Source of the DNA: Candidatus Latescibacterota bacterium
GTDB lineage: Bacteria; Latescibacterota; UBA2968; UBA8231
Direction: 5' to 3'
Assembly (NCBI GenBank): GCA_965248265.1
Contig: CBDFJF010000002.1
Location: 2,112,001-2,176,000 of the forward strand
Length of the DNA: 64,000 nt
Below the pieces are notes generated by a model. That model was not told the origin of the DNA. It searched no databases and was given only the letters and a program-made list of their open reading frames with translations. Made by a program: the position numbers and the translations under genes. Positions 3,101 to 35,511 of this stretch are shown piece after piece (positions within the stretch are counted from its first letter, which is position 1; each line of letters begins with the position of its first letter).

Positions 3101-3305
3101 GGGTCGGCAAGGTCCAGTCCTGCCAGTGCGAAGCCCGGTCGACGATGACCCGGTCGCCGACTATCCGGTGGCCCTGCGCGTGGAGGGGGAGGGCCCCACC
3201 TGCCAGCAGCAACGGTAAGAGGCAGAGCGCGCGGGCGCACGCCCAGAACGCGTGGAGGCCCGGCCGGCGGCCGACGCTCCCTACCTGCTCTACACTTGCC
3301 TTCAT
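138..3305 (-). CDS. Cassette protein B, copy 1: ~1055-aa secreted protein with discoidin/F5-8C-like modules and C-terminal CHU_C/FlgD-Ig-like domain
   Basis: Start moved to ATG 3305 (ATGA overlap with upstream stop). Signal peptide ending ...LPLHA; NIVDGDPSTFWEP..WWVEIDLG; IRTRTG..WSPWS..SPGLRRFMQFQ; PNPFTPNNDGVND..WDGRDDGGNLVPPGLY..IAVAY. Paralog of 20743..23949. Confidence 0.85.
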   Translation of the reverse strand: MKASVEQVGSVGRRPGLHAFWACARALCLLPLLLAGGALPLHAQGHRIVGDRVIVDRASHWQDWTLPTHLVRVETNGWVRARDFRSVYSLLQGESFSRSVAVGQKTARISNIDSTLKRDITGAIITDRSDNFVYDYTVRPGVSRAGSNDRLKENIVDGDPSTFWEPDLDAPEEDWWVEIDLGWAVPLERLRLTFVDESLGDPFYRYILLLGPKQSVYYPTDPTQLQNFIPFEGANTDRREFVFDAAQVSEDLPPDARSEESKRLPDEFEASPEWRGKLMHVVRILVTDTRGGRAEEVSQEEWQALPASERGDIVYFLKDGDFEEPVDEETYDELPEDRRGRQVYYRRELPRLAEVEAWGRGDDIGVGFLEGGGTLSGPGDPLLLFDGEAPTSYPMSTFLPNHPEQNTVTIDLGGTVWLDELRILTGPGERERSRGYLIRSSNGARDPQGNLQWQQISPVERENNFEQGFYARTADLLDPTRRVRYLDFITFAHDQDRAEHGFWSRARPPQIGLMSLFSSAPTAEAVLESDLIELPGSFTLGAVRWEADAPPGSEVEIRTRTGAQKLEETIYCNTGGNCSLTEKAYNGLPRALKGLIHVSDVVGPGWSPWSRKYERSGETATSPGLRRFMQFQVRLVNHDRQAVPSVRRLSIDLRTPVAQRLGAEVWPDLARPGRLDTFEVFVQPDFVVQTFDDELEPSPGFDEVLVLANPALALQVVDVAVGTESELGAGEPELIFDRPHADGLQDADGQVLQVTETTRADSLLLHLPEDALQNSVEATVLPRQYFRILEPGDEVPTTLDGRLLSVHSHAQLIAEERGATRYFQIASDGTLEEVDDGAAYEELPEEEQGPVRYFRIVTGLGEQTVFNSLGDTLDQIDHRRLGNRRGSVVGPGKLLRLRVAAALYGPSTQLHVAVRNSKVDAPWQEAGEGDVTALRPASSLVIFAEDTGKLVDDIAIAPNPFTPNNDGVNDAAQIRFSLFKVSTARTVAVRLYTLGGDPVRRLEIETVSGKQEIAWDGRDDGGNLVPPGLYLCQIDVSADAAEGSRKSSRVIAVAY

Positions 3306-6016: not shown

Positions 6017-6038
6017 GGAAACCTCATAGTTCAGAGCG

Positions 6039-10120: not shown

Positions 10121-10125
10121 AGCAG

Positions 10126-12798
10126 CTACTCCAGACCGGCGTAGATGGTGACGAAGAACTGGTTGGTCGTCCTCGATTCTCGTTCCTTGAAGTCCTGGTG
10201 CTCGACCGAGGCCCCCAAGAGGGAGCGCATGCGGTAACCTAGATAGTTGGAATCGGTGATGAACTGCAGCGCCACCGTCAGAGAGTTGAAATCCAGCGCG
10301 TCGTCCTCGAGGTCATTGGAGTACAGGTACTCGACACCCGTCTGGACCTTCGACCCCGACAGGACCCTGGTCTCGACGAGGGTCGCCAGCATCTCGCTGA
10401 CACGCGATTGCCTGACGGCGCTGAAGAGCCCGCGGGTCTGGCGAGTGTACTCGCTCTTCCAGCGGGGCTCGAAGAGGAACCGCCCGATCTGGCGCCGGTA
10501 GCTCACCTTGTCCACCACTCCGAAAAAGTAGTCGATACCGCGAAGACCCAGCTCGTCGCGGCGTTCGCCGGACATGCGCTGGTTGTAGTAACTGTGGCTT
10601 ACCTTGTTGACGACCAGCCATGGACCCTGCTGCAGTGAATGCCCGACGAAGGCCTGACTGATCCACGTGTCCCGCGCCAGGAGGGGATCGGCCAGGCGCA
10701 CGAGCTCGCCGCCGCGCAGGCTGTTGTCGGGGGCCCACTGCAGGAGGAGATCGGGAATGTCGTCCTTCACCTGCTGGCCCATCCAGAACGTCCGCAGGCG
10801 GCCGAAGCGCGGCGAGTCGGAATCGATCGTCACCAGGGCGTAATTGCTGTGGTTCCTCTTGTCATCGGAGATCAGCTCTTCCCGCAGCATGCCAACCGAA
10901 AGGGTGACTTCCGGAGTGACGTCGACGCCGCCGTAGACATTGTATCCCTCGCGGTCTCTCTTGTAGGGAAAGTCGGGTTCCTCGTCGTTCTCGTATTGAT
11001 CCACCCAGAAGTTGTGGTTCATGTCGACGCCGAAGAGGAACTCGGGGCGCTCGACGCCGAAACGCAGGAAGGCCTCTTCGTAGTCGGGGATGTTGTTGGC
11101 GCGTATCCGGTTGTCGTTCTGGTTGAAGTCCGGTACGAAATCGTTGTTCGAGTCCCACCCCGGGAAGGTCTCGTCGTCCCCCTGGAGCCAGTCCTGGCGC
11201 ACCGTGTCCGGGGTGCGGTCGTGGTCGTCGTTGTCGTCCACGAACTCCCACCCGAAGAAACGGAGATCGTCGTAGTCTATGATGCCCCGGCGACCGGTGA
11301 CGTAGGTGGACGTGTTGTAATCCGGGTCCATGCTGTAGACCTCGCCGAAGGCAAACCACGGTTCGCTCTGCTGACTGATGTTCATCATCCAGGCGGGGGC
11401 GCTCTTGGCGCCGTCGATGCCGGAGGTGGAGTGATGGGTTTCCTCATCGGAGTTGGGGTACTTGCGATAGCTCCAGCTGCGGTCGTACTCGCCGTAAAAG
11501 TCGAAGCCGAAGGGGCTGCGGATCTCCAGGCTGGCGCCGGCGACATGGGTGGCCGTCGGCAGTCCGTAGTCGAAGCGCACGGTGCGCAGGTTGGTGAGAT
11601 CGCGGACATTGCCCTCGGCCTGGGTCACGAGGAGCAGCACGGGCTGGTCGTCGTCGTCGGTCTGCTGGTCCGAGGTGACCCATACCTGGTAGTCGTTCCC
11701 CAGCTGGAGCTGCAACTGGACCGAGACGATCTCCGTCTTGGCAAAACTCGCCCGGTCGAGAAAATCGGGACTGTCGAAGTCGTAGATCAGGACCATCTCT
11801 TCAGCGCCGTCGGCGGCGATGAAGCCCTGCCGCACGAAACCGCCCTCGATGACAGGTTCGAAGCCGATCTCGCGGCCCCGCTCCACGGTGCCGTCCTGAT
11901 AGGTGATGATGATGTCGGACCCGGCCGGAAAATAGGCAGCTCCCCCCTCACCGTCTTCGGGCGAATCGTCACGCAGCACGAGCTGGATGAAACCGACGTA
12001 CTCGTTCTGGGCCACGGTCAGCTCCCCGGCGAAGGGGTTCCAGCTCGTCTTGTCGCGCAAAGTGTTCGAGTGGTGGGAGTTGACAGCGTGGACGCCCACC
12101 TTGACGTAGTCGCCAACCATGCCGGTGACCCGCCCGCCGAGCAGCGTGGTGTTGTTCGTGTTCTGGACCTCCCGGTCGGCTGTGGTGTTGCCGCCCTGGC
12201 TACTGATGCGGGAGTACAGCATCGTGGCCTCCATCCGGTCGGTGGCCAGGTCGACCTGCATTCCGTTGAAGCGGGGCTTGGAGAACACCATCGGCGTCAG
12301 CGTCGTGCGCAACCGGTCGCTGATGCTCATGGAGTAGCGGTACTGGCCCTTCTGGTCATGGACGACGACGAGGCCCGAAAACCAGTCGCGGAAGCGGGAG
12401 GACTTGAGCAGCGTGTTGCCGAACTGCTGTGGTGTAGTCTGCGAGTTGTTGAAGATCAGCCAGCCCCGAGTCAGGAAGTTGCCGTAGATGTCGTAGAAGT
12501 AGTCGCCTTCCAGGGACGTCTCCACGTAGCGCTGGTACTGGTCGCGCGCGTAGTTGGTGTACTCCCACTGGCGCCACTGATAGTCGTTGTACAGCTCGTC
12601 CGGCAGGTACCACTTGCGCACCGCCGGGTCGATGGCATTCAGCAGCACCCCGGGCCCCTGGGGCGCGTAGCTGTACTCGTGACCTCGGACCAGGCCCAGA
12701 CGAGAGCCGTAATCCTCCTGTCCTGCCACCGGCAGGAGACCGACGCAAAGCAGGCCGAAGAGACCGAGGCCACCAACCAATCTGTCCTGTAGAGTCAT
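10126..12798 (-). CDS. Family A protein (A1, copy 1)
   Basis: Start moved to ATG 12798 (MTLQDRLVGG..., signal peptide); QEDYGSRLG; conserved acidic block; ends FFVTIYAGLE. Confidence 0.85.
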   Translation of the reverse strand: MTLQDRLVGGLGLFGLLCVGLLPVAGQEDYGSRLGLVRGHEYSYAPQGPGVLLNAIDPAVRKWYLPDELYNDYQWRQWEYTNYARDQYQRYVETSLEGDYFYDIYGNFLTRGWLIFNNSQTTPQQFGNTLLKSSRFRDWFSGLVVVHDQKGQYRYSMSISDRLRTTLTPMVFSKPRFNGMQVDLATDRMEATMLYSRISSQGGNTTADREVQNTNNTTLLGGRVTGMVGDYVKVGVHAVNSHHSNTLRDKTSWNPFAGELTVAQNEYVGFIQLVLRDDSPEDGEGGAAYFPAGSDIIITYQDGTVERGREIGFEPVIEGGFVRQGFIAADGAEEMVLIYDFDSPDFLDRASFAKTEIVSVQLQLQLGNDYQVWVTSDQQTDDDDQPVLLLVTQAEGNVRDLTNLRTVRFDYGLPTATHVAGASLEIRSPFGFDFYGEYDRSWSYRKYPNSDEETHHSTSGIDGAKSAPAWMMNISQQSEPWFAFGEVYSMDPDYNTSTYVTGRRGIIDYDDLRFFGWEFVDDNDDHDRTPDTVRQDWLQGDDETFPGWDSNNDFVPDFNQNDNRIRANNIPDYEEAFLRFGVERPEFLFGVDMNHNFWVDQYENDEEPDFPYKRDREGYNVYGGVDVTPEVTLSVGMLREELISDDKRNHSNYALVTIDSDSPRFGRLRTFWMGQQVKDDIPDLLLQWAPDNSLRGGELVRLADPLLARDTWISQAFVGHSLQQGPWLVVNKVSHSYYNQRMSGERRDELGLRGIDYFFGVVDKVSYRRQIGRFLFEPRWKSEYTRQTRGLFSAVRQSRVSEMLATLVETRVLSGSKVQTGVEYLYSNDLEDDALDFNSLTVALQFITDSNYLGYRMRSLLGASVEHQDFKERESRTTNQFFVTIYAGLE

Positions 12799-12856
12799 CG
12801 ACAGGCTCCCGTGCGAAAAGGCAAGTCCGGCAAGGACAGCCGGACTCCGCTCATTT

Positions 12857-14572
12857 TTACTGTTCTGCGTGCCGCTGTTCCAGCTGCTCGTCAAAGACGG
12901 CGATCCGGCCTTCGTACTGCTCCCGCAACGACCGGAAGAGGGCGTCCGTAAGCTTCTGCTTCTCCTTGGAGCGCATTACATATTCGACCGACTTCCGCGC
13001 CTCGTCGAAGGGCTTTATGCGGCTCTCCGAGTGCTCGAGGACGCGAAAAACAGAATAACTCTCCGGCTCCTCCAGGTAAACCGGACCGACGAGCTCGCCG
13101 ACCGGCGCCGCGAAGGCGGCCTCGGCAAGCTCGGGATAGGCACCGGCGCGGTGGTGATGGATCGTCATCCGACCACCATTCCGGTGTCTGCCGTACGAGG
13201 CGACAAGGGGGTTGGCGCTGAAGATCTCCTCGAAGGAGCCCCCCGCCTCGAGCTCGGCGCGCCAACGCCTGGCCGTGGAGTCGGCCTTGGCGTGTACCTC
13301 CTGGACACGGAGCACCTCCCCCGCCCGAAACTTTTCCTGGTTGTTTTCGTAGTAATCGCGCATTTCCCTTTCGGAGAAGGAAATGCGGTCATCCGATTCG
13401 GTCTTGACGAGGAGGTCGATCATGAAACCCCGGTGCTTGCGGTCGCGCCAATCGAAGAAGCCCTCCTCCTTGACCCAACCCAGGTCGTGCGCGGCCATCA
13501 CGAAGAGCTTCGGAAACAGGAGCCGGTTCTCGGCCACGTGGACGATCATCGAGCTGTCGCCCACGGCCGAGTTTCCCATCTCCTCGCGAACCCGGACGAT
13601 GAAATCTCCCGCCGTTATGGTGTCGCCGTCGGCGAAGGAGTACAGCGGCTGGGCGGCCTCCTCCTCGGTCAGATCCGGGCGGCGCTCCGAATGTCGCTGT
13701 ATCAGGGCCCGGAATCCCTCGGGATGGGAGCGGGCGCCGTACTTCTGTCCGAGGACCTCGGCCTCCTCGTTGGTCCGGCGCCACCACTGTTCTTGCCTGA
13801 CTATCTTGGAGAGATCACCCTCGTAGTCCTGGATGTTGGCTTCCCTGTCCTCTTCGAAGCGGACAATCCACCAGACGCCGGGCGACAGTTTTATGAGCAG
13901 CGGCTCGTTCAGGGAGAGGGAGCGGAACTCGTCGGGCGGTATCCGCAGTTTCTTGAGGCCCGTCAATCCCACCCAGGCAACCTTTCCGGAGTCGTCGGCG
14001 CGGGGGTCGCTCTCCCCGTGTTCCTCGAGCACCTCGGCGAAGGGCCTGCCTTGCTCGATCTGCGCGAGCACGGCGCGGGCCTCCCTCTCGGTGCCCTTGA
14101 GGCGGATGCGGCTGACGAGGCGTTCCCGGTCGAAGCCCATGTCGTGAAAGGCGCTCTCGATCTCGGTGGGGGTGATCGCGATCTTGGAGTTGACGAACTG
14201 ACCCTCGTAACGCAGGTAGAAGCGGTGACGCACGGCCGTCTCCAGCTGGTGCGTGACCACGGAACTGGTGTCCAGGCCGCGGGATCTGGCTTCCTGAACG
14301 AGCAGCTCCTGGTCGATCATGGACTCGAGATAGTCCCGGTCCGCCTCGACCCCCTCCTTGTCGCTGAGCAGGTCCAGCGACACCCGGCCGACGAAGACGT
14401 CGAGTTGAGATGCCGTGATCTCCGTGTCGCCCACCTTGGCGAGGACCGGATCGTCCGGGCCGCAACCGCCGAGGAAGAGGAGCAGCAGCAGAGAGGTCGC
14501 GAAGGGGACGGTGAGTTTTCTGACCTCGCGGCTAGCGCCAGGGGTGAGGCGTGTGACGGGGCAGACGGTCAT
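12857..14572 (-). CDS. SurA/PrsA-like parvulin peptidyl-prolyl isomerase lipoprotein, cassette copy 1
   Basis: Lipobox LFLGG|C; VLAKVGDTEIT (SurA-N-like); two rotamase-like regions (G.PFAEV; AAFAAPVGELVGPV); KPFDE..FRSLREQY tail. Confidence 0.8.
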   Translation of the reverse strand: MTVCPVTRLTPGASREVRKLTVPFATSLLLLLFLGGCGPDDPVLAKVGDTEITASQLDVFVGRVSLDLLSDKEGVEADRDYLESMIDQELLVQEARSRGLDTSSVVTHQLETAVRHRFYLRYEGQFVNSKIAITPTEIESAFHDMGFDRERLVSRIRLKGTEREARAVLAQIEQGRPFAEVLEEHGESDPRADDSGKVAWVGLTGLKKLRIPPDEFRSLSLNEPLLIKLSPGVWWIVRFEEDREANIQDYEGDLSKIVRQEQWWRRTNEEAEVLGQKYGARSHPEGFRALIQRHSERRPDLTEEEAAQPLYSFADGDTITAGDFIVRVREEMGNSAVGDSSMIVHVAENRLLFPKLFVMAAHDLGWVKEEGFFDWRDRKHRGFMIDLLVKTESDDRISFSEREMRDYYENNQEKFRAGEVLRVQEVHAKADSTARRWRAELEAGGSFEEIFSANPLVASYGRHRNGGRMTIHHHRAGAYPELAEAAFAAPVGELVGPVYLEEPESYSVFRVLEHSESRIKPFDEARKSVEYVMRSKEKQKLTDALFRSLREQYEGRIAVFDEQLEQRHAEQ

Positions 14573-14974: not shown

Positions 14975-15064
14975 GCACATCGAGAGGTGGCAGTGTTCCA
15001 TGAGCAGATGGGCATGACAGAAGAAGTCAAAGCTGCCTTCGAGCGGGCGACCTTCCTACAGTGA
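14975..15064 (+). pseudogene. Probable remnant of a TPR-protein C-terminus
   Basis: Reads AHREVAVFHEQMGMTEEVKAAFERATFLQ*, a TPR-like pattern. Its TGA overlaps the GTG at 15061. No credible full gene upstream. Confidence 0.35.
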
Positions 15065-17133
15065 GCATGCGAGCGGTTCTATCACACCTGTCTGGCATGA
15101 GCTGGACGTCTTCGAGCGCCGCTTCCGCCGCTCTCTTTCTTGTGGCCCTGGCGCTGCGGTTGCTGCACGTGTTCGAGGCCAGTCATTCTCCCTATTTCGG
15201 CGAGCTCATTCTCGACGAAGGCGAATATCAGACCCTGGCTCGTGGCTTGTTGGGTGGCGAATGGGAGCAAGCGGCCGACGATACCTACGTGCACGGCGTT
15301 CTCTACCCGGCCCTGTGGGCGCTGGTGATGCTGGTCGGAGGTGGGCCGTTGGCGATGCAGATCGTGCAGGCCGTTCTCAGTGCTTCAACCTGCGTTCTTC
15401 TTCAGCGCGCCGCCCGCCACCTGATGCCGCCGGCTGCCGCCATGGTCTGCGGCCTGCTGGCCGCCGTCTACTGGCCCTTTGTCCTGTACAGCAGCCAGTT
15501 GCTGGCCACAACGCTGGTGTTGTTCCTGGTGGCAGCCACGCTGGCCCTGCTGCTGCGACCGGGCGCGACCACGCCGCTGTGCGTGGTAGGGGCGGGGGGC
15601 TTACTGGCTCTGCTGGCCACGACCCGCGCCAACGCCCTGTTACTTGTGCTGCCGGTGTTCCTGTGGTTGAGACAGTTGGCTCGCCAAGAGGGTCGGACTT
15701 TCTGGCGGGGTGGCGCCATGCTCGCTACCGGTCTGCTGTTGGGATTGGCGCCTTTCGTGGCCTTCAACTGGTCGACGCAGGGTACGGCCGCGCCGTTCGA
15801 AGGGGCCTGGAGTTTCTACATGGGCAACAACGCGGAGGCCGACGGCACTCCGTACGCCCGCCAGGGCCTCGACTGGCAACGCCTGGAGTCGGTCGGTTAC
15901 CGCGACGGCTGGGATGCTACGCCTGCGGATCGAGGCCGCATCTATCTGTCCGATGGAGTGACCTTTCTGGCTCACGAACCGGGGATGGCTCTGGGTCTGG
16001 CGTGGCGCAAACTTCGCCTGTTCTGGAATGCCTTTGAGGTGCCGGTCAGTGTTGACCTGGCCTGGTACGCCCACAACACCTGGCTGGGCCGGCTGCTGCC
16101 CGGATTCGGCCTGCTGGTACCGCTGGCGCTGGTGGGCATGGGAGTCAATCTGAAGCAGTGGCGGGGGCGTTGGGGCTTCGCCCTCGGTGGTGTCCTCGCC
16201 TTCCTGCTCTCCGGCTTGCTGTTCACGGTGTGCGCTCGCTACCGGCTACCCGCTCTCCCGTTTCTGATCCTGTTCGCCGCGGACGCACTTCGGTTGGGCG
16301 CAGGAGCCCTGCGAAGTCGCCAACGCGGGACCGCTGCCCGACTCGGGATAGGCCTGGTGGTGGCGACGGTCTGGGTCCACACCGGCGTCGATGCCGCCGC
16401 CGTCGACCACCTGCGACCGCGGTGGCTCCAGGGCAGCATCCACCTGCGCAAGGGCGAGATCGAGCAGGCCATGGTCGATTTGCGCGCTGCAGCCGAAGAC
16501 CATCCGAAGGATGCCGAAGTGCGCAACAGCCTCGCTGTGGCTCTGGAACGCCAGGACCGGTCGCCAGAGGCTGAGACCGTATACCGGGAGGCTCTGCGTC
16601 TGGCGCCCGATCATGCCAAAGCCTGGCTGAACCTTGGGGATCTGTTGCGTCGCCAGCGACGGCTTCCAGAGGCGGCCGAAGCGATCCAGCGGGCCCTGGC
16701 CGTCGATCCCAGGCCCGGCACCCAGCAGAAGGGACGCGTGCTCCTGGGGCAGGTTCTTCTCGAAGGAGGCCGCCCGGGCCAGGCGCGGGCCACACTGACC
16801 GAGGCTCTAGTTATCCTCGACGGTCGCGATCTTCGCTATGCCCTGGCCAGCGCATGTTACCATCTAGAACTGCCTGACGAGGAGGTGGCCCACCTCGAGC
16901 AGGCGGTGCAGCTGGACTCGTCCTTCGCGCCTGCCTGGCGCAACCTAGGGGTCGTTTACCTGCGCCGGGGAGATCTGGTCACCGCCGAGCAGGCCCTCAA
17001 GCGAGCCGCTTCCCTCGATCCGAGTTCATCCACCGTGTACCGGCACCTGGGAGCATTCTACCAGCGCACGGGGCGCCAGAAGATGGCGCGACAGGCCATC
17101 GAGCGGGCTCGCCGCCTCGAACAACCGTTCTAG
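15061..17133 (+). CDS. GT-C family (GT39/PMT_2-like) membrane glycosyltransferase with C-terminal TPRs
   Basis: ILDEGEY acidic motif after TM1, AAVYWPFVLY, TRAN, FYMGNN, ARYRLP, then multiple TPRs. Start 15061 GTG or a nearby downstream ATG. Confidence 0.8.
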   Translation: MSMRAVLSHLSGMSWTSSSAASAALFLVALALRLLHVFEASHSPYFGELILDEGEYQTLARGLLGGEWEQAADDTYVHGVLYPALWALVMLVGGGPLAMQIVQAVLSASTCVLLQRAARHLMPPAAAMVCGLLAAVYWPFVLYSSQLLATTLVLFLVAATLALLLRPGATTPLCVVGAGGLLALLATTRANALLLVLPVFLWLRQLARQEGRTFWRGGAMLATGLLLGLAPFVAFNWSTQGTAAPFEGAWSFYMGNNAEADGTPYARQGLDWQRLESVGYRDGWDATPADRGRIYLSDGVTFLAHEPGMALGLAWRKLRLFWNAFEVPVSVDLAWYAHNTWLGRLLPGFGLLVPLALVGMGVNLKQWRGRWGFALGGVLAFLLSGLLFTVCARYRLPALPFLILFAADALRLGAGALRSRQRGTAARLGIGLVVATVWVHTGVDAAAVDHLRPRWLQGSIHLRKGEIEQAMVDLRAAAEDHPKDAEVRNSLAVALERQDRSPEAETVYREALRLAPDHAKAWLNLGDLLRRQRRLPEAAEAIQRALAVDPRPGTQQKGRVLLGQVLLEGGRPGQARATLTEALVILDGRDLRYALASACYHLELPDEEVAHLEQAVQLDSSFAPAWRNLGVVYLRRGDLVTAEQALKRAASLDPSSSTVYRHLGAFYQRTGRQKMARQAIERARRLEQPF

Positions 17134-17314: not shown

Positions 17315-17360
17315 AAAAAAAAGTTGGGCAGGTCAACGAGCGACCTGCCCAACCTTTCTC
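17315..17360 (-). terminator. Rho-independent terminator (likely bidirectional)
   Basis: Perfect 12-bp stem gttgggcaggtc (17323-17334) / gacctgcccaac (17342-17353), 7-nt loop. A8 at 17315-17322 gives U8 on the minus strand; pyrimidine tract on the plus side; lies between convergent genes. Confidence 0.85.
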
Positions 17361-17419: not shown

Positions 17420-18403
17420 TTAGAACTGAGCCTTGATGCGACCCCAGCTCTGATCCTCGACCGCAGTCGGCCAAGCAAGGCTTCTGTCGATCGGTTCGAG
17501 CACGATGTCGACTTCACCAAACGAGCTTGCGCCCGTTCCGGCCGTGGTGGTCCAGTAACCGCCGTCCAGGAAGTCATCCGGGCCGTCATCGCCGGGCGAG
17601 CCGCAGATTATGGTGCAATCCGCGTCCACGAAGGTCTGGGTGATGTGGATGACCTGATTCACATCCAGATCGTCAGTTACCCAGTCAGCGGGACTCGTGG
17701 GCGATTCGATGCTGGTGTCTGAGTACAGGAAGGGCGAAGTCTGGAGCTCATACCAATACGTGCTCTCGCCGTGTTCCTCTCCCGTGAAGGTGTGCTGCAC
17801 CTCGTAGTAGCCATCCAACGCGCCCGAACTCTGATCGTTGACCCAATCGCATCTGATACAAAGGCCCGAGAACATCCACCCGAGGCCTGCATTGGGTCCA
17901 CCACCGATCGGTGGCAAGGTGTAGTTGAAGCTGAAATTGTGCTTCTCACCCGCATCGTTCAGGTCTGCCAGCTCCTGCTGGCTGAGCTGCTCCATCATCA
18001 ACATGGTTTCCATGGCATCATCCCACCACCACCTGGCCGGATCGTCACGAAGAGCGGAGTGATAGTCGTCGAAGACCCTGTAGCCGTAGTAGAGCTTGTT
18101 CTGGGCATCGCTCCAACCGTACAGGAACTCGACGCTGATGTCAGCGGCGTCATTGTTGCCAAAGAAATCCTCAAGACCGCCGAAGCCCTCGATGGGCCGG
18201 ATATGGTCATCGGTGAGGGCGAAAATGCTACGGTCGACCGCCGCCCAATCCGAGAGATCACCGTCGATGGTCGGCTCTAGACCCGGCGGGAAGTGGACTG
18301 CGGGCACTGCCCCCGCTTCGAATCCGGGAGGATTCTGGTGGGCGACCGCCAAAGATGCTGTGGTGAGCAAGCCCACCGCAATGTAAAACAGACTCTTCTT
18401 CAT
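17420..18403 (-). CDS. Secreted 327-aa CBM9/DOMON-like protein with C-terminal 'PTAVEDQSWGRIKAQF' motif
   Basis: Strong RBS (GGAGGAGGAGAAAGAGGA); signal peptide MKKSLF..AVA; PTIDGDLSDW..YYGYRVFDD..WWWDDAME; Cys pairs; SWGxIK tail. Confidence 0.85.
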   Translation of the reverse strand: MKKSLFYIAVGLLTTASLAVAHQNPPGFEAGAVPAVHFPPGLEPTIDGDLSDWAAVDRSIFALTDDHIRPIEGFGGLEDFFGNNDAADISVEFLYGWSDAQNKLYYGYRVFDDYHSALRDDPARWWWDDAMETMLMMEQLSQQELADLNDAGEKHNFSFNYTLPPIGGGPNAGLGWMFSGLCIRCDWVNDQSSGALDGYYEVQHTFTGEEHGESTYWYELQTSPFLYSDTSIESPTSPADWVTDDLDVNQVIHITQTFVDADCTIICGSPGDDGPDDFLDGGYWTTTAGTGASSFGEVDIVLEPIDRSLAWPTAVEDQSWGRIKAQF

Positions 18404-18470
18404 GTATCCTCTTTCTCCTCCTCCTGCTGCCAGGAAAGGTGGGGCGTTACACCTAACAGTTGTACGAAAG

Positions 18471-18512
18471 GTGATGTGAGTCGTTACAGGTGTGATGTGA
18501 GTCGTTACAGGT
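18471..18512. repeat. 21-bp perfect tandem duplication in the 5' leader of 17420..18403
   Basis: gtgatgtgagtcgttacaggt x2. Confidence 0.95.
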
Positions 18513-18558
18513 ACTGAATTGGATCTCCCTAAATCATAGAATTCTGATTTGGCACATC

Positions 18559-18627: not shown

Positions 18628-20730
18628 TCAGTACGCCAGCGACAGCACCCTCATCGCGGTATCGACGCCCTGGTCCGTGTCGACGGAGACCCTGAGCAGG
18701 TAGGTTCCCGGGGGCACCAGATTCCCGGTGCCATCGCGACCGTCCCAGCTGAGCGCATCGTCGTCGTTGAAACTGTGACTGCTGCTCGTGGCGGCAAGTA
18801 CCTGGCGAAGCAGCCGGCCTGACAAATCGAAGACCTCCACGCTGATCTGCCGGGGCCGATTCAGGTCGCGCACGTCGAACGCAATGGCGACCTCGTCGTT
18901 GATGCCGTCGCCGTTGGGACTGCACACGGGCGAAGAGACCGTGAGTCGCTGCAGGAGATTGCCGCCGAGCGGGGTGCGCACGGACAGGTCATCTCCGAGG
19001 AAGCGGAAAGTGGCGTTGCCGGGTTCCACCTGCTGCTTGAGCTCGGGTTCCTCACTGTCGTAGATCCAGCCGCTGAATTCGGCCCCGAAGCGCAGAACCC
19101 GGGCGTCAAACGCCACCTCGATACGCTTCTGGTCGTCGTTGCTGGGGTCCTGGAGCTTGTCGAATTTCACGATGATGCGATCCGGCAGGATTTCGGGTAC
19201 TGTCTCGGACGCTGAGCGGTCGATGACCTCGTCGCCGCCGACCAGCACCGAGCGCACAGTATCGACCTGAGTACCGGTTAGGATCTCCAGCCGATCGAAG
19301 CCGCGGTTGCCCTGGTTGAGGAAGGGGTTGACCACATAGGTGAACATATGAGGCTCGAAGCTGTCCACCTCGATCGGCCAGATTTCGCCAACCACAGCTG
19401 CGGCCACCGGCGACTCGGCGAACAGCACAGTCAGGTCATCCAGACGGGGCGCCTGCAACAAGGTCGACTCGAAGATGATCTCGAACTGCAGGTAGCGACT
19501 CGGGCCGGGCGACAGAAACCGGGTGCCGTCCCGCCATTCATGTGCCGGGGACTCAGGATCGCGCAGCCCCGCTTCGAAGTCATATACCGGCGACCAGAAG
19601 CTCCAGTTGTCCACATCGTGGGTGCGGTTCTGAGCGTCGATGCCAGCTATGATCCACGCATCTGCGTCCGACTGGGCGAGCAGGCCGGTGCGGCCCGTGG
19701 TCCAGAACAGACTGGGGCTCCTGGTATGACCGGTGCGCGTCCGAATCTGCAGCCGGGTGCCGGGGGGTTGGTCGCCGCCCCAGCGAATCTTGCTGAAGGT
19801 CGCAGCGGTGGAGCCGAAATCGAGGATCTCGGAGCGCCAGACCCGCCGCCGGGGATAGCCATCGGCGTAGACCTCCCACTCGGCTATCTCCCAGGTGCGT
19901 TCGGGGATGAGGGGCCGCAGCGTGATGAAGCGCAGATGGCGATCTACTTCGAGCTCGGTGTCCACGAGGAGGTTTTCGCGCGTCGTGATCAGGACATCCA
20001 GCTGCGGATCGGGCGGCAGCTGGTGGGCGCCTTCATGCCTGAATTCCGAGAATTGACTGTGGCCGGGCCTGATCGTTCCCCTCTTGCTCTGTTTGGGGGC
20101 ATTGTTGTCACCCATCTGGATTTCAAACCACGGCAGATAGTTGGACTCGAGACCCTCGCGGGGGTAGAAGCGGGTACGGGAGAGCGGAACTTCCCTGCCG
20201 AAGGCGAGGGCCCACACCGAGGCGTCGCCCGTCATATTTCCGGTGATCAAGGGGTTTTCCCGCACGACTCTCAGGAGCACGGTCGTGGGATCTCCGTCGT
20301 GGATCGGAGTGAGGTCCTGGGCGTGCCCCCCGACCGCGAAGGTCCCGCCGTTGCCCACCAGGTTACCTTTTTCGGCGATGTTGACCGTTTTGTCGTACCA
20401 CTGAGGTCTCAGGATATTCCCACTCATATCCGGCAGATCGGGTCCCCGATAGAAATACTCCTTCAGGTAGGTGCCGCCGCCCGCCTCATCGATCACTCGA
20501 ACGGACACCTGCCTGCGCTCATCGCCGTCTTCGCCGATGACCACGTAGTTGACTGGGTCACGGTCACAGACCTTGATCGCCTCGGGTAGCCAGTAGGGCA
20601 GATTCCGGCACATACTCGACCACTGGTTTCCCGACTCGCCGCCCAGGCGGAATTCAGACCGTGCCCACGCGCTGCCGGAAATTGTCAACACCAAGACAAC
20701 CGTAGTAACGGTTCGGAGTGAAAGCATCAT
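18628..20730 (-). CDS. Cassette protein D, copy 2: 700-aa secreted protein with CHU_C/FlgD-Ig-like C-terminal domain
   Basis: Signal peptide ..AWA|RSEFRLG; IRTRTG..WSFWS..SPGPSRYLQF; CSPNGDGIND..WDGRDGTGNLVPPGTY..LSLAY. Confidence 0.85.
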   Translation of the reverse strand: MMLSLRTVTTVVLVLTISGSAWARSEFRLGGESGNQWSSMCRNLPYWLPEAIKVCDRDPVNYVVIGEDGDERRQVSVRVIDEAGGGTYLKEYFYRGPDLPDMSGNILRPQWYDKTVNIAEKGNLVGNGGTFAVGGHAQDLTPIHDGDPTTVLLRVVRENPLITGNMTGDASVWALAFGREVPLSRTRFYPREGLESNYLPWFEIQMGDNNAPKQSKRGTIRPGHSQFSEFRHEGAHQLPPDPQLDVLITTRENLLVDTELEVDRHLRFITLRPLIPERTWEIAEWEVYADGYPRRRVWRSEILDFGSTAATFSKIRWGGDQPPGTRLQIRTRTGHTRSPSLFWTTGRTGLLAQSDADAWIIAGIDAQNRTHDVDNWSFWSPVYDFEAGLRDPESPAHEWRDGTRFLSPGPSRYLQFEIIFESTLLQAPRLDDLTVLFAESPVAAAVVGEIWPIEVDSFEPHMFTYVVNPFLNQGNRGFDRLEILTGTQVDTVRSVLVGGDEVIDRSASETVPEILPDRIIVKFDKLQDPSNDDQKRIEVAFDARVLRFGAEFSGWIYDSEEPELKQQVEPGNATFRFLGDDLSVRTPLGGNLLQRLTVSSPVCSPNGDGINDEVAIAFDVRDLNRPRQISVEVFDLSGRLLRQVLAATSSSHSFNDDDALSWDGRDGTGNLVPPGTYLLRVSVDTDQGVDTAMRVLSLAY

Positions 20731-20742: not shown

Positions 20743-23700
20743 TCAATACGCAACGGCGATAACCCGGGTCTGTTTGAGCCCATCGACATCAGCATCGGCG
20801 AGCGCCTCGAGCTGACACAGGTAGAGGCCCGGCGGCACCAGGTGTCCGTTCATGTCCATGCCGTTCCACTCCATGGTCTGCCGTCCACCAAGAAACTCCT
20901 TTTCCTGCTGCCACAAAAGATGACCGCCCAGCGTGTAGATGCGCAGGGCGATCGGGCGCTCGTCGAACACCCGGAACAGGGAGAAGTCGATCTGAGCAAG
21001 GTCGTTGACGCCGTCGTCGTTGGGCGTGAACGGGTTGGGTGCGATCGCGACGTCGTCGATGACACCCGTCGGCTGCGGGGCCCTGATGACGAGGGTCTGC
21101 GCCGGCCGCAGCTCGGTGACATCCTGCTCTCGGGCCACTTGCCAGGCCGCCTCGACACCGCTGTTGCGCACGGCGACGTTGAGGACCGTGGTCGGGAGGT
21201 AAACCTCGGATGTGAAGCGCAGCCGCACCAGCCGCCCAGGGCCGATTTCCCAACCCCGCTCGCGGGAGCGGGGGTATTGGCTAACGAGCAGGTTGCCCAG
21301 CTCGTCATACGCTGACTGATTGCCTACGCTGCTCACCTTGCGGAAGTACCGGATCGGTCCCTTCTCCTCGTCCGGCAGCTCTTCGTACTCGGCCGCAGTG
21401 ACCACGTCGTCGTCGGTGAGCGCATCACCCTCGCCGACCTGACGGAAGTGGATCACCTGGCCGCGCTCTTCGTCGCGCAGCGCACTGTGGCTGTAGAAGG
21501 TCAGCAGAGTCCCACTGAGATCGGTGGGCACCTCGTCAGCGGGGTTCTCATCATCGCCGGGACTGACCAGGCGAAAGTAGGAGCGCTGCAGCAGAGCAGC
21601 CGGGGTACTCTCGAGTACCTCGGGCAGGACCAACCACAGGGAGTCGCCCTGGGACATCACCTGCAATGTGTCGGGGGAGGCAGAGGCAGCATCCAGCAAC
21701 ATGGAGCGGCCATCCTCAACGAACCAGCGGTCGAACAGCTGCACCGGTTGATCGGCGCCCAGCTCGGCTTCCGTGCCCACCGCCAGATCCACCATGCGCA
21801 GGTCGATCGGGGGATCCGAGCGCAGGCGGATCTCGTCGATGCCCGGGCTGACTTCAGGCCGCTGGAGAAAGTCGGGCTGTAGGAACACCTCGAACGTATC
21901 AAGCCGACCCGGAAGCGTCAGTGCGGGCCACACCTCGGCCCCCAGCCCATGCGCCAGCGGTTGCTCCAGATCGACGATGATCTTCTCGAGGACGGGTACC
22001 GTTTCCTGGTCGTGGTTGATGAGGCGGGCCTGAATCTGCAGTTGGCTGCGCAGGCCGGGCGACGTGGCCAGTTCCCCCGAAACCGAGTACCTCTGACTCC
22101 ACGGGTTCCAGCCGGAGCCGATTTCCAGCGACGTGATTATGGGCCCCTTGAAGCTTCGCAACCTGTTGTAATTATTGATCTTGGCCTCTTCGTCCTTGCC
22201 CGTCACCTCGTTCCCCGCTTTGTCGTAGTAGCGGGTGACCTCTACCAGCTGATCGCCCGTGCGAGTGCGGATTTCGACATCGGAGCCGGGGGGGGTCTGT
22301 GCTTCCCAGTGCACGCCGCCCAGGTTGAACAGGCCTTGCACGTCGATGGGCGGGGACTCGAGCACGACTTCGGCAGGAGGTGCCGCTCCTGGGTAGAGGA
22401 ATATTTCACGAATCCGGGGTGAGAACCTGTCCGTGGTTTCACCCTCCGTGGAGTGGGCCAAGAAGAACAACTCAAAGAAACGCACCCGCTGCAGCGGCGT
22501 GAACTGATTCACCAGGAAACGGTGGAAGCCGGTGTCGATGTTGATCTCGTGGTCAGGTGTGCTGAGGACGGTCCACTGCTTCTCTCCCTGGGCGTCGAGG
22601 GTGCCCGTTGAGCCGCGCAGGATATGGCCTCGCGGCGCTCCCCTGGTAGCCATCCGCACCTGCTGCATCCACAGGATGCCCCCCAGGTCCAGCGTCAGGA
22701 CATTCGAGCCGGGCCTCTCGGGGATGATCGCATCCATGACGTTTTCCGATGCCCAGTTGCCGTCGAAGTACTGGGTCTCGTCGCCGGGAAAGGTCGATGC
22801 GATGGAGCCTCCACCGGCGGCCAGTTGGATGCCGACCTCATCCCCCCAACCCCATACTTTGATCTCGGCCAGCCGGGGGCGCTCGCGCCGGTAGTACTCC
22901 AAGCGACCTCGGCGGTCTTGTGCCAGTTTCAAGTAGGTCGCTTCGTCCTCGACAGGCTCCTCGAAGTCGCCATCGCGCAGGAAATAGACGATGTCGCCCC
23001 TGTCGTCGACCGGCAAAGCCTGCCACTCCTCCTCGGAGATCTGCTGTGCCCGGCCCATGCGCGAGCTGGATACGAAGATGCGGATCGTCTCCAGCATGCG
23101 GCCGGTCCACTCGACGTCGGCGGTCGGGTTGCCGTTGTAGGCGCCCGCTGGGGCGTCCGAATCTTCCACCGCGAATGTGTTGCTCTCGGGTTCCACCGTC
23201 ATCGCCTCGAGCGGCAACGCCCCGCCGAGCCGCGAGCTGTCGAAGACGAACACCCGCTGATCGGTGTTGATCCCCTCGAAGGGGATGAAAACGTTAGAGT
23301 TGATACCGCTGCCCTCATCGCGGAAGAGGGTTTGCTCCTCGGAGACGAGCATGACGAAGCGGAAAAAGGGATCGCCGTCACCCTCTTCCGCGAAATCGAG
23401 ACGAACCCGTTCCACGGCTACAGGCCGGCCCAGATCGACCTCGATCCACCAGTTCTCAGGCGGGTCGTCGAAGTTGGGCTCCCAGTAGGTGGTATCGACG
23501 CCGTCGAAGATGTTATCTGCCAGATGGGAATTGGAGCCCACACGGCTGATGCCGGGACGCACGAAGTAGCTGTAAATCGGGTCGTCGTTGCGATCGGTCG
23601 CCGGCTGTCCCAGCGCATCGAGGAGGCGTGTGCTGTCCATGTTGGCAATCCGCGGGAGGGGGCGGGTCACGATGACAGACCTGGTGAAGCTCCTGTCGCT

Positions 23701-23949
23701 GAGCACATCGGAGACCCCGCGGAAATGCCGCGACCGCACGGCACCGTCTTCCACGACCGTCAGATAGGTGGGCCTGTTCCAATTCCTCCAGTGCGAATCG
23801 AAATCCACCACAACCTGGTCATCATCGACGCGGGCGCCCTGAGTCTGCTGGGCGAGGGAAGGGCCGTTGGCGGTGAGGATGATAGTTGAGAGGAGGAGAA
23901 TGGGCAGGAGAGATGAGGCACAGGTGCGCCTGAAGCGTGTCTCAATCAT
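20743..23949 (-). CDS. Cassette protein B, copy 2 (~1068 aa)
   Basis: Start moved to ATG 23949 behind GGAGGA. Collinear with 138..3305; ends PNPFTPNDDGVND..VPPGLY..IAVAY. Confidence 0.85.
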   Translation of the reverse strand: MIETRFRRTCASSLLPILLLSTIILTANGPSLAQQTQGARVDDDQVVVDFDSHWRNWNRPTYLTVVEDGAVRSRHFRGVSDVLSDRSFTRSVIVTRPLPRIANMDSTRLLDALGQPATDRNDDPIYSYFVRPGISRVGSNSHLADNIFDGVDTTYWEPNFDDPPENWWIEVDLGRPVAVERVRLDFAEEGDGDPFFRFVMLVSEEQTLFRDEGSGINSNVFIPFEGINTDQRVFVFDSSRLGGALPLEAMTVEPESNTFAVEDSDAPAGAYNGNPTADVEWTGRMLETIRIFVSSSRMGRAQQISEEEWQALPVDDRGDIVYFLRDGDFEEPVEDEATYLKLAQDRRGRLEYYRRERPRLAEIKVWGWGDEVGIQLAAGGGSIASTFPGDETQYFDGNWASENVMDAIIPERPGSNVLTLDLGGILWMQQVRMATRGAPRGHILRGSTGTLDAQGEKQWTVLSTPDHEINIDTGFHRFLVNQFTPLQRVRFFELFFLAHSTEGETTDRFSPRIREIFLYPGAAPPAEVVLESPPIDVQGLFNLGGVHWEAQTPPGSDVEIRTRTGDQLVEVTRYYDKAGNEVTGKDEEAKINNYNRLRSFKGPIITSLEIGSGWNPWSQRYSVSGELATSPGLRSQLQIQARLINHDQETVPVLEKIIVDLEQPLAHGLGAEVWPALTLPGRLDTFEVFLQPDFLQRPEVSPGIDEIRLRSDPPIDLRMVDLAVGTEAELGADQPVQLFDRWFVEDGRSMLLDAASASPDTLQVMSQGDSLWLVLPEVLESTPAALLQRSYFRLVSPGDDENPADEVPTDLSGTLLTFYSHSALRDEERGQVIHFRQVGEGDALTDDDVVTAAEYEELPDEEKGPIRYFRKVSSVGNQSAYDELGNLLVSQYPRSRERGWEIGPGRLVRLRFTSEVYLPTTVLNVAVRNSGVEAAWQVAREQDVTELRPAQTLVIRAPQPTGVIDDVAIAPNPFTPNDDGVNDLAQIDFSLFRVFDERPIALRIYTLGGHLLWQQEKEFLGGRQTMEWNGMDMNGHLVPPGLYLCQLEALADADVDGLKQTRVIAVAY

Positions 23950-23971
23950 TTCGTAATCCTCCAAAGGTTCG

Positions 23972-26662
23972 CTACTCCAGTCCAGCGTACACCGTGATAA
24001 ACGATTGCACCGTGGTCGAGGCCTCTCGGCCACGCGGGTCAGTTCGCTCCCACACAGCGCCTACGAGCGCTCTGATGGAGTACCCTTGATAAGCCGACTC
24101 CGTGAGAAACTGGAATCCCAGGTTCAAAGAAGTGAGATCGTGATCTGGGCCGTCGAGATCCTCGGACCACAGGTACTCGATGCCGGACTGCAGCGTCGTG
24201 GCGCCGAGCAACCGCATGCGGACCAGGCCGGATACCAACTCGGTGAGGGTCGTTCGCTCCTGCGCGGCAAACAGGTCACGGCTCTGGTCGATGAATTCAC
24301 TCTTCCAGCGCGGCTCCAATTCCAGCCGTCCCAGGGAGAAGAGGTAGCTCGCCTTGTTGAGAATGCCGAAGTAGTAATCCTGTTCCGCAAGTCCGAGCTC
24401 CCGTCGCTGGTCGCGGTCGAGCCGCTGGTGGAAATAGACCCAGTTGACCTTGCTCATTAAGAAGAAGGAGCGTCCGCGCCAGGTGTGGCCGCCGAAGAGA
24501 TGGTTGATCCACGCATCCCGCGCCAGCAAAGGATCGTCCACCTCGGTAAGGGCGCCTCTGTCCAGGAGGCTTTCGGGGGCCCATTGCAGCAGTGGATCGG
24601 GGATGTCGTCCTTCACCAGCTGGGCCATCTCGAACAACCGCACACGGCCCCAGCGGGGCCAGGATCGCTCCAAGGTCAGCATGGCATAGGTGCTGTGATT
24701 GCGCCGGTTTGAAGCAATCAGCTCTTCGCGCAGGGCGCCAATCTTGAGATCCGCTCCGGGTATAAGGGCTATCCTGGAGAAGACGTTGAAGCCACGGTGG
24801 TCCTTGCGGTACGGATAGTCGGGCTCGTTGTCGTTTTCGTAGAGATCGACCCAGAAGTTGTGGTTCATGTCCACCCCGAAGAGGAACTCGGGGCGATCTG
24901 CGCCAAAGCGCAAGAAAGGCTCCTCGTAGTCCGGGATGGTGTTGGGAAGGATGCGGTTGTTGTTGCGGTTGACGTCCGGGAGGAAGTCGTAGTCGCGATC
25001 CCACCCTGGAAACACATTCTGGTCGACGAATTTTCCGGCCTGGGTGTCGGAGCGGGTCAGGTCGGGGAACCGATCCTGATCGTCGTTGTCTTCGACGAAA
25101 TCGAACCGCCGGCGCTCATCGGCATAATCGACGTTGCCGGTGACGTGGGTCATGAACGTAGTGGTACTATAGAGGGGATCGATGCTGTAGAACTCGCTGA
25201 ACAGGAACAAGGACGACATCTGCTTCGAGACATTCAGCATCCAGGCAGGAGACCGGCGCTGGCCACTGATACCCGAGGAAGTTTTGTGGTCGTCCAGCTG
25301 CGGATTCGGGTACTTGCGGTAATTCCAGTTCAGGTCGTACTCGCCGTAGAGGTCAAATCCGCCGACATCGCTCAGTCTGACGGTGCCGCCGATTATGTGC
25401 GTGGCCGTCGGCAACCCGTACTCGAAACTGACCAGCTGCACATTCGAGAAGTCCTGGACGTTGCCTTCGGCCCGCTCCACGAGAAGTGGTACGAGGTCCT
25501 GCCGGTCCGAAGTCATCCAGATCTGGTAGTCATTGGCCAGCACCAGGCGAAATTCGACATCGACGATCTCACTGCGATCGGCATGGGCCCGGGAGATGAA
25601 CTCGGGCCTGCTGAAGTCGTAGATCAGCACGATTTCTTCATCGCCGTCGGCGGTGAAGAACCCGGGTCCCGGCACGCCGCCGGCGACGATAGGCTCGAAG
25701 CGGAGATTCTTCCCGCGGTCCTCGGCGCCATCCCGGTAGGTGATTATGACGTCCGAGCCAGCAGGGAAGAAGGCCGGCCCTCCGGTTCCATCCTCAGGCG
25801 AGTCGTCCCGGAGCGAAATCTGGATCAGGGACACGACCCCGTTTTGATCTTCGACGAGTGAACCGGTGATCGTGCTGTTCGCCAGTCTGCTGTTGAGGCT
25901 GTGGCTCTGGTGGGCATTGACGATGTGGACGCCCGTCTCCACGAAATCGCCCAACTGCGCCGTGAAGCGGCCCCCAGAAATGACGGTTATGTCCGTTTTG
26001 GGACGCTCGTCATCTCTGCCCGGCACGCCGCCCTGTGAGTAGATGATGGAACCTTTGTACTTGTCGCTCATCACGTCGAGCTGCACCCCGGCAAAGCGCG
26101 GCTTGGACCACACCAGGGGCGTGAAGGTGGTGCGTAGATCCGAACCGACCGTCATCGCGTATCGGTATTGACCTTTGGATTCACTTGCGATCGCCACACC
26201 GCTGAACCACGTAGACATCCTGGTGCCCGTGAACACGACGTGGCCGGCTTCCGCGGGTGTTTCCTGGCTGGTGTTGTAGATCAGCCATCCCCGGGGCATG
26301 AGGTTGCCGTAGAGGTCGTAGAAGTAGCTGCCATCCAGTGCTTCCACGCGCCCCGACTCCTCGTCAAAACCGACGTAACGCTGGTAGGGTTGACGAGCAT
26401 GGGAGGTCGTCTCCCATTGGCGCCAGCGATATTCCTCGAAAACTTCTTCAGGCAAGTACCACTTGCGCACCATCGGGTCGATCGCGCCCGTCGTCTGTAC
26501 AACGCCCTGGGGATGGAGCATCCGGTCGCCCCCCTGCGTCAGGCCGAGGCGGGCGCCGTAGTCGGGTTGGCCTGACACCATCCCCGCCCAACCGGCCATG
26601 GTGATGGCGAGAAACAGGATGCTGCTGTGGTTCCGCGACTGGCTTCTAAACCTCATGGACAT
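23972..26662 (-). CDS. Family A protein (A2, copy 2)
   Basis: ATG 26662 (or 26656); QPDYGARLG; shares A2-specific GHV..RM..WF.GVA.ASESKGQYRYA with 3302..6016; ends FITVYAGLE. Confidence 0.85.
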   Translation of the reverse strand: MSMRFRSQSRNHSSILFLAITMAGWAGMVSGQPDYGARLGLTQGGDRMLHPQGVVQTTGAIDPMVRKWYLPEEVFEEYRWRQWETTSHARQPYQRYVGFDEESGRVEALDGSYFYDLYGNLMPRGWLIYNTSQETPAEAGHVVFTGTRMSTWFSGVAIASESKGQYRYAMTVGSDLRTTFTPLVWSKPRFAGVQLDVMSDKYKGSIIYSQGGVPGRDDERPKTDITVISGGRFTAQLGDFVETGVHIVNAHQSHSLNSRLANSTITGSLVEDQNGVVSLIQISLRDDSPEDGTGGPAFFPAGSDVIITYRDGAEDRGKNLRFEPIVAGGVPGPGFFTADGDEEIVLIYDFSRPEFISRAHADRSEIVDVEFRLVLANDYQIWMTSDRQDLVPLLVERAEGNVQDFSNVQLVSFEYGLPTATHIIGGTVRLSDVGGFDLYGEYDLNWNYRKYPNPQLDDHKTSSGISGQRRSPAWMLNVSKQMSSLFLFSEFYSIDPLYSTTTFMTHVTGNVDYADERRRFDFVEDNDDQDRFPDLTRSDTQAGKFVDQNVFPGWDRDYDFLPDVNRNNNRILPNTIPDYEEPFLRFGADRPEFLFGVDMNHNFWVDLYENDNEPDYPYRKDHRGFNVFSRIALIPGADLKIGALREELIASNRRNHSTYAMLTLERSWPRWGRVRLFEMAQLVKDDIPDPLLQWAPESLLDRGALTEVDDPLLARDAWINHLFGGHTWRGRSFFLMSKVNWVYFHQRLDRDQRRELGLAEQDYYFGILNKASYLFSLGRLELEPRWKSEFIDQSRDLFAAQERTTLTELVSGLVRMRLLGATTLQSGIEYLWSEDLDGPDHDLTSLNLGFQFLTESAYQGYSIRALVGAVWERTDPRGREASTTVQSFITVYAGLE

Positions 26663-26675
26663 GGACTCACCAAGT

Positions 26676-35343: not shown

Positions 35344-35511
35344 GGTACCTTCCAATATGGCGATCGGATTGCATGGAACTGGCAAACAAAGTAGCCAATT
35401 TCACTTCTGTTTCCGAGCAAAAAATATGGTGTGGTGGTGTGATTCTGAGGCTGCGGGCTATGTTCTCGACCGAACCTGCCGCAGTGCTCTCAGCTTTCGA
35501 GGCCTCGTGAC

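Follow-up and report, generated by a model that had tools for sequence, protein, structure and literature searches.

The 64,000-nucleotide stretch of a Candidatus Latescibacterota genome analyzed here (the window) carries a gene, here called E, whose 327-residue product is predicted to be exported and ends in a 16-residue tail, PTAVEDQSWGRIKAQF. This tail is one instance of a tag, T-x-V-E-x-x-[ST]-W-[GA]-x-[IVL]-K followed by 2 to 10 residues, which occurs at protein C-termini far beyond chance expectation, and E itself is the conserved terminal gene of an eight-gene Latescibacterota envelope operon. On balance we read the tail as a sorting or tether signal, with modest confidence. The N-terminus of E, MKKSLFYIAVGLLTTASLAVA followed by HQNPP, reads as a typical Sec signal peptide, so that both halves of the original prediction for this gene, a secreted protein with an SWGxIK tail, were seen.

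In the six-frame open reading frames (ORFs) of at least 60 residues from the 7.3-Mb genome (64,563 ORFs, 8.6 M residues), the pattern [ST]WG.[IVLM]K occurs 40 times, and 37 of these occurrences lie no more than 15 residues from the stop. A regular-expression scan gave 41 tail ORFs of about 160 to 480 residues, 33 of them with a signal-peptide-like N-terminus by a simple rule; a looser expression gave 49, a few of which are doubtful. A profile made from 36 tails found 41 sites in the genome at an E value of 0.001 or below. Within the alignment of these 36 tails, the Trp and the Lys are invariant, and the Gly as well as the Thr seven residues before the Trp are at least 90% conserved. The consensus is T-A-V-E-x-x-S-W-G-x-[IVL]-K-A followed by 2 to 10 variable, mostly polar and often basic residues, and no hydrophobic segment was found in the aligned tails. 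None of the Pfam or NCBIfam models matches the tag. No relevant paper on the motif was found in the literature, and, at the level of abstracts, nothing on an SWGxIK tail came up for Latescibacteria with type IX secretion systems (T9SS) or protein sorting.

The tail is found on at least 14 unrelated families in the genome. Twenty of the 32 scanned tail proteins outside the E family match Pfam families, among them Exo_endo_phos, FGE-sulfatase, META (n = 2), PD40 propellers (n = 2), CHRD, VWA, LTXXQ (n = 2), DUF3179, CBM96, DUF1554, TIMP-like, PKD, Peptidase_S9, and others. Eleven long E homologues end in a sequence resembling a T9SS C-terminal domain (CTD) instead of the tail, and at least 10 of the 11 match FlgD_ig/Por_Secre_tail at the C-terminus; one of them, P0050, consists of the E body plus this domain and nothing else. 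The tail thus fills the slot of a known surface-sorting domain. From its strictly terminal position, its presence on unrelated Sec-exported families, and this shared slot in longer homologues, we infer that it probably acts as a sorting signal, which is what the original prediction had proposed.

Only one protein was seen to have both elements. It is 422 residues long (L034:4900-6168(-), the same as G000:C2:3911900-3913171), contains CarboxypepD_reg and an internal FlgD_ig/Por_Secre_tail-like domain (residues 96-172), and also ends in an SWGxIK-type tail, ...ESETWGRIKASFSR.

The operon encodes a SurA-like peptidyl-prolyl isomerase (PPIase), two predicted outer-membrane barrels (A), a protein with a GT-C-like membrane domain and TPRs (GT-C/TPR), and two to three surface proteins (here D and “big”) with T9SS-type CTDs and F5/8-type lectin domains. 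It is present in many paralogous copies inside glycan-utilization islands. In 75 loci centered on A homologues, mostly from metagenome-assembled genomes of Candidatus Latescibacterota, the commonest gene order was PPI-big-A-TPR-D-D-A-E, with E last; 49 of the 75 hold E within 10 kb, and all 51 such E ORFs are tailed. In the target genome, which has 13 strong A paralogues, each of the 11 full-length E paralogues adjoins a D, big, or A gene. The E paralogue just left of the window (G000:C2:2108808-2109839(-), ending ...TSVESQSWGRIKSQF / ...SVESQSWGRIKSQF) directly follows a D-type gene. The idea that an E-like gene closes other cassette copies was thus borne out both beside the window and in the 49 loci, and E also lies where it had been placed, downstream of a cassette and co-oriented with it, 224 nucleotides 3' of D on the same strand.

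The A proteins match neither a TonB-dependent-receptor model nor any other family, and their Atlas matches were to unnamed clusters only. AlphaFold2 (AF2) models A as long antiparallel strands, with a predicted local distance difference test score (pLDDT) of 58.6, which marks a poor model. Its Foldseek neighbors are SlpA/SDBC, MtrB, LptD, and FimD, all at low template-modeling (TM) scores.

The tail and the operon were followed through 168 Latescibacterota genomes in GTDB family groups f1 to f14 (Table 1), where related genomes are not independent samples. The tail profile matched in 94 of the 168, in agreement with the earlier claim that such tails are widespread in the phylum. Among five handles from loci titled to Gemmatimonadetes or Woeseia, three (G169, G171, and G172) coincide in their coordinates with members of the Latescibacterota set, and the Woeseia-labeled genome has one match. 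The tails are restricted to lineages in which T9SS and the close A family occur together. Tail and close A barrels are co-distributed at the family level, and no tail-rich genome lacking the cassette was seen within the phylum. The target genome itself has 88 matches to T9SS CTDs, three PorU matches over the cut-off, SprA, and a PorV-like gene. T9SS alone is not sufficient for the tail, as the 19 genomes of f10, f13, and f14 are T9SS positive and almost tail-less. When tails were placed by coordinates in five small genomes, the picture was mixed, with four of five on E ORFs in G006 and most on other ORFs in G030. One Atlas cluster points to the tail in Poribacteria.

Table 1. Tail, A family, and PorU in the GTDB family groups of Latescibacterota (genomes with a match/genomes in the group; E values in parentheses).
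Group	Tail	A	PorU
f1	75/75	75/75, strong	listed over cut-off
f2	1/3 (one weak match)	0/3	1/3, weak (1.6e-60); none listed over cut-off
f3	0/22	0/22	partial matches only (~1e-60 to 1e-71)
f4	0/31	0/31	partial matches only (~1e-61 to 1e-83)
f5	3/3	3/3, strong	listed over cut-off
f6	3/3	3/3, strong	listed over cut-off
f7	1/1	1/1, strong	listed over cut-off
f8	1/1	1/1, strong	listed over cut-off
f9	2/2	2/2, strong	listed over cut-off
f10	1/13	13/13, weak (about 1e-16 to 1e-71)	listed over cut-off
f11	1/1	1/1, strong	listed over cut-off
f12	5/6	5/6, strong	listed over cut-off
f13	0/1	1/1, weak (2.8e-47)	listed over cut-off
f14	0/5	1/5, weak (8.1e-21)	listed over cut-off

Several candidates for a protein that reads the tail were examined. 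Gene clustering within 6 kb of the 37 tail genes outside the E family gave no specific reader candidate, and no exosortase- or sortase-type gene linked to the tail came out of it. The largest neighborhood cluster, around 12 of the 37 genes, is held together by T9SS-CTD proteins. Two families that each occur in six neighborhoods were rejected: a membrane family with DUF6785 and DUF6784 has about 34 tblastn matches genome-wide, and an unnamed family of about 480 residues has more than 60, in both cases with many far from tails. The GT-C/TPR protein ranks low as a reader because its distribution does not follow that of the tails. With a single-protein query, its GT-C domain matches 29 of the 31 tail-less f4 genomes, and nothing was found in the tail-positive groups f5 (0/3), f7, f8, f11, and f12 (0/6) or in the genomes G098, G099, G106, and G107. 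A co-fold of A (904 residues) with the last 45 residues of E scored 0.00 against a mark of 0.32, a run with controls absent that counts neither way.

The DUF6785 and DUF6784 proteins are about 650 residues long (e.g., 56048-57991(-); the domains were scanned in two copies). Many of their matches lie beside cassettes, sulfatase-rich islands, and tail genes, and they may be inner-membrane transporters of glycan loci.

We propose that the tail comes into play after Sec export. As a short peptide for docking or addressing, it would position small soluble proteins at the cell surface or outer membrane, or tether them there, doing for E what the T9SS C-terminal domain would do for the longer E homologues. 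By co-inheritance, the best candidate for a reader would be the A-barrel operon, working in a T9SS-positive envelope. E could then be a client that the operon itself supplies, such as a sugar-binding partner or lid kept at an A barrel. That the A operon is the reader is a tentative suggestion, more doubtful than the signal itself. Of the earlier claim that the cassette recognizes the tail, the fixed place of E in the cassette and the co-distribution with A held up; for binding or processing of the tail by a cassette protein, no support was found. A further step, for which the odds are poor, would make the PPIase/A-barrel operon an as yet unrecognized machine by which Latescibacterota, and perhaps Poribacteria-like phyla, display or export proteins at the outer membrane. 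It would recognize SWGxIK, with E as the resident client and other tailed proteins docked at or passed through A. If true, this would be a new route of protein placement beside T9SS, and possibly the phylum's counterpart of the SusC/SusD glycan-capture complexes.

A number of observations weigh against a sorting signal read by the A operon. Of the 41 tail ORFs, only some 10 have an A gene within 20 kb, and about 30 are far from any cassette, so that most clients are unlinked to the proposed reader and an operon-encoded reader must act in trans on most of them. The co-distribution of tail and A is not independent, since the operon itself includes E, which carries the tail more often than any other family. 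In f10, the A-like barrels are only distantly related to A, and the E-like CBM9 proteins read in 12 loci (L110-L121, from genomes G011, G015, G018, and G022) start with ...ALERPD(V/I)EFKIFQFP, have neither the tail nor an N-terminal His, and end in a PKD-like domain; such operons can thus work tail-less. The LTXXQ/Spy-like, META, and TolB-like PD40 families are usually considered periplasmic, and carriers of this type fit an envelope tether and not necessarily surface display. To these points are added the poor model of A, the mismatch between the GT-C/TPR and tail distributions, and a phyletic test that covers Latescibacterota only.

Other explanations share some of this evidence. The tail could be read by T9SS itself, through SprA/PorV/PorU or an adaptor, as a minimal alternative to the CTD of about 80 residues, and the cassette would then be one user among others. 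Tails occur only in families with PorU over the cut-off and are missing from the 53 genomes of f3 and f4, where PorU matches are partial; a T9SS domain stands in the tail's place in E homologues; the cluster next to 12 of the 37 non-E tail genes includes T9SS-CTD proteins; and many tails end in basic residues, as T9SS CTDs also do. We nevertheless hold this to be unlikely, given that tails are found in just 1/13, 0/1, and 0/5 genomes of the T9SS-positive groups f10, f13, and f14, that 16 residues are too short for the Ig-like sandwich defining T9SS domains, and that the CTD models TIGR04183, TIGR04131, PF18962, and PF13860 have no match in E. It is rather improbable that the tail has no sorting role and is a shared functional peptide instead, either a short amphipathic helix or strand through which proteins oligomerize or associate with the membrane surface, or a C-terminal tag recognized by a PDZ protease or quality-control system of the periplasm. 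AF2 does draw residues 314-326 of E as a helix, at low confidence, with the Trp, Ile, and Phe on one face, the carriers are small and single-domain, some of them from the usually periplasmic LTXXQ, META, and PD40 families, and the candidate scans yielded no reader. However, the Thr at -7, [ST], Trp, Gly, and Lys keep a fixed spacing across unrelated folds, which points to one common partner rather than a generic membrane helix, and replacement by a T9SS sorting domain in homologues points to placement. In known protease C-degrons, the C-terminal residues are not variable in the way of those after the Lys of the tail, which differ in both length and chemistry.

A role in glycosylation, in which the GT-C/TPR proteins bind the tail via the TPR domain and modify the conserved Thr, Ser, or Trp, has very little to recommend it overall. 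The GT-C/TPR gene adjoins E in both operon copies and at many other loci, its product has a weak PMT_2 match in the N-terminal half, and the recognition of C-terminal peptides by TPR domains has precedents (PEX5 with PTS1, Hop with EEVD); against this stands the distribution of its GT-C domain, present in tail-less genomes and not found by the single-protein query in several tail-positive groups. That E is the polymerizing major subunit of a cassette-assembled fiber, with the tail as donor strand, is hardly credible. E is small, with a strong ribosome-binding site and its own terminator, and the FimD usher is among the structural neighbors of A (low TM score), yet the tail is carried by at least 14 unrelated families far from cassettes, and the fold of E is a CBM9-like jelly roll, not a pilin. 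The label of major subunit in the original prediction found no support. A sorting or tether signal remains our preferred reading of the tail.

The body of E was approached through its family and its predicted fold. E itself matches no Pfam or NCBIfam family (Pfam at an E value of 0.01 or below, and none at 1 or below). A word-indexed search found only six relatives, each with the tail at its end, and a profile of 16 E sequences found 1,926 representative clusters at an E value of 0.001 or below. PF06452 (CBM9_1) matches 4 of the 16 E-family members (best E value 7.4e-6), the target E not being among them, and is present in 13%, 37%, and 94% of the members of Atlas clusters. The AF2 model of E (pLDDT 68.7, predicted TM score 0.75) has as its top Foldseek match the CBM9 structure 1i82_A (E value 2.1e-7, probability 1.00, TM score to the target 0.70), followed by CBM9 7nwn and 7nwo, BACUNI_03838, and the DOMON-like heme subunits EbdC (2ivf_C) and NxrC (7b04_C). 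By Foldseek, E thus has the CBM9 beta-sandwich fold. Together with the PF06452 matches in the family, the model indicates that E is an exported CBM9/DOMON-like beta-sandwich of about 305 residues that resembles a carbohydrate-binding module.

Members of the aligned E family are 24-86% identical overall, yet T313, W320, and K324 are invariant among them (alignment A1), so the tail is conserved even where the rest of the protein has drifted apart. In 117 of 154 E homologues, W[GASN]x[IVLMF]K is found no more than 12 residues from the C-terminus. A His directly follows the predicted cleavage site in all 16 aligned E sequences and in 131 of the 154 homologues, and the residue before it among the 131 is Ala in 109, Gly in 16, and Ser in 3. 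An internal His of the motif D-x-D-H-S-G-G is present in 128 of the 154, the target E having Gln139 at this position, and several Asp/Glu positions are near-invariant. The conservation pattern suggests a metal site involving the N-terminal His, similar to a histidine brace, in the E family.

The expression signals claimed for the gene were a promoter of its own, a very strong ribosome-binding site, and a perfect terminator. The ribosome-binding site, GGAGGAGGAG, and the terminator-like hairpin with its T8 run are present (Table 2), and this hairpin also faces the convergent gene at 15061-17133. The promoter is weak, with a single sigma-70-like match at 18533-18560 where 0.6 are expected in shuffles, although the phylum's own promoter type may differ. 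Upstream, 68-110 nucleotides 5' of the E start codon, are two exact tandem 21-nucleotide repeats that occur nowhere else in the genome when up to three mismatches are allowed. A local regulator may use them as its operator.

An E orthologue 90-95% alike was found in RNA-library contigs from four of four runs (four studies), the longest covering 17469-18404, with the likeness to E ending at the start codon. These matches are contigs at a small share and show the presence of the orthologue, not its level or transcript ends, and they cannot rank expression, which leaves the claim of high expression unsupported. In three of the four runs, contigs match only 17419-17452 (34 bases of the tail end, with three differences), beyond which their sequence is unrelated. 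Near-identical tail-coding DNA is thus present in other genes of those communities.

Table 2 lists the features of E, of the E-containing operon, and of its neighbors. Left of the window, the next gene after the E paralogue is a paralogue of the convergent GT-C/TPR gene. On the right, a third cassette with another gene arrangement (54318-63998) extends past the window's edge, and beyond it are two further A genes and an E paralogue (G000:C2:2185086-2186093) ending in ...DSWANIKASFRK.

Table 2. Coordinates of gene E, its signals, and the operon copies within the window.
Feature	Position	Strand	Description or basis
Second operon copy	138..14572	(-)	its D and E genes just left of window
Second copy, big	138-3929	(-)	
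Second copy, second A	3302-6016	(-)	
Second copy, D	6039-8102	(-)	
Second copy, TPR/PMT_2	8102-10120	(-)	
Second copy, A	10126-12894	(-)	
Second copy, PPIase	12857-14572	(-)	
Convergent neighbor	15061..17133	(+)	GT-C/TPR protein, 690 aa
Intrinsic-terminator-like hairpin + T8	17315..17353	(-)	12 pairs, 8 G-C; hairpin itself 17323-17353
Gene E (under study)	17420..18403	(-)	327 aa; ORF and translation
Stop codon of E	17420-17422	(-)	translation
Tail codons of E	17423-17470	(-)	translation
His22 codon	18338..18340	(-)	predicted first mature residue, family-conserved; homologue comparison
Predicted Sec signal peptide	18341..18403	(-)	residues 1-21, ...SLAVA/H; sequence reading
Ribosome-binding site	18415..18424	(-)	11 nt 5' of ATG; sequence reading
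Tandem 21-nt repeats	18471..18512	(.)	two exact copies upstream of E; third copy (67%) at 18434-18454
D	18628..20730	(-)	700 aa, weak C-terminal domain of T9SS type (CHU_C/FlgD_ig); next gene 5' of E
big	20743..24033	(-)	1096 aa, F5/8 type C domain + weak CHU_C-type C-terminal domain; domain scan
A	23972..26686	(-)	904 aa, predicted large outer-membrane beta-barrel; AF2/Foldseek, no Pfam/NCBIfam family
D-type protein	26676..28856	(-)	726 aa
GT-C/TPR protein	28853..30931	(-)	GT-C-like membrane domain + TPR
Second A barrel of E-containing operon	30935..33652	(-)	
PPIase	33706..35385	(-)	SurA/PrsA-like, first operon gene
Third cassette, PPIase	54318-56015	(-)	
Third cassette, A	58019-60916	(+)	
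Third cassette, D-type gene	60913-63228	(+)	
Third cassette, another A	from 63237		

Among known systems, the T9SS type A CTD (TIGR04183/PF18962, FlgD_ig-like), which is read by PorV/PorU, comes closest to the tail. Both stand at the extreme C-terminus of unrelated Sec-exported families, both occur in the same genomes and occupy the same slot in E homologues, and tails are restricted to PorU-positive families. The T9SS CTD is, however, a folded domain of about 70-100 residues, whereas the tail has 16-25 residues and neither a folded domain nor a model match; in E, the CBM9-like body is followed by a conserved stretch of just 16 residues, too little for a type A or type B CTD. Most frames with a T9SS CTD are also much longer than the tail carriers, and the T9SS-positive groups f10, f13, and f14 show that the one can occur almost without the other. 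With PEP-CTERM/exosortase, LPXTG/sortase, and GlyGly-CTERM/rhombosortase, the tail shares a short C-terminal motif on unrelated exported proteins and a lineage-restricted distribution. Unlike those signals, which have a helix and a basic cluster, it has neither after the motif. Nor does it resemble the beta-signal of outer-membrane proteins, a terminal aromatic residue with alternating hydrophobic ones: E does end in Phe, but most of the 36 tails have polar or basic ends of variable length. Judged by its position and its carriers, the tail appears to be of the C-terminal-sorting-tag kind while lacking the defining features of both the T9SS CTD and the PEP-CTERM-type tags.

The body of E resembles CBM9 of Thermotoga maritima Xyn10A (PDB 1i82) and the DOMON-like superfamily, from which it differs in being a free-standing exported protein with a conserved N-terminal His and a sorting-like tail, and not a module of a glycoside hydrolase. 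His as the predicted first mature residue is a feature the E family shares with histidine-brace copper proteins such as lytic polysaccharide monooxygenases and CopC-like proteins.

Short C-terminal tags set the location of exported proteins, and the known ones led to dedicated machines (sortase, exosortase, rhombosortase, T9SS). The tag described here sits on dozens of proteins in each genome of uncultured candidate phyla that degrade glycans. This work adds a conserved operon around the tag, the recognition of E as its most conserved carrier family, and the co-inheritance of tag, barrel, and T9SS within one phylum. Together, the fixed place of E in the A-barrel operon and this co-inheritance narrow the reader of the tail to a short, testable list of candidates. 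As a whole, the operon is reminiscent of SusC/SusD in the polysaccharide utilization loci of Bacteroidota, and of LptD/LptE, MtrB/MtrA, and Slam, in that a large barrel is encoded together with surface binding proteins and a small exported protein as its partner, in many paralogous copies inside glycan-utilization islands. It differs from them in that A has no TonB-dependent-receptor match and E no lipobox, and the partnership of A and E is putative. This abundant and unannotated operon may be how Latescibacterota capture polysaccharides.

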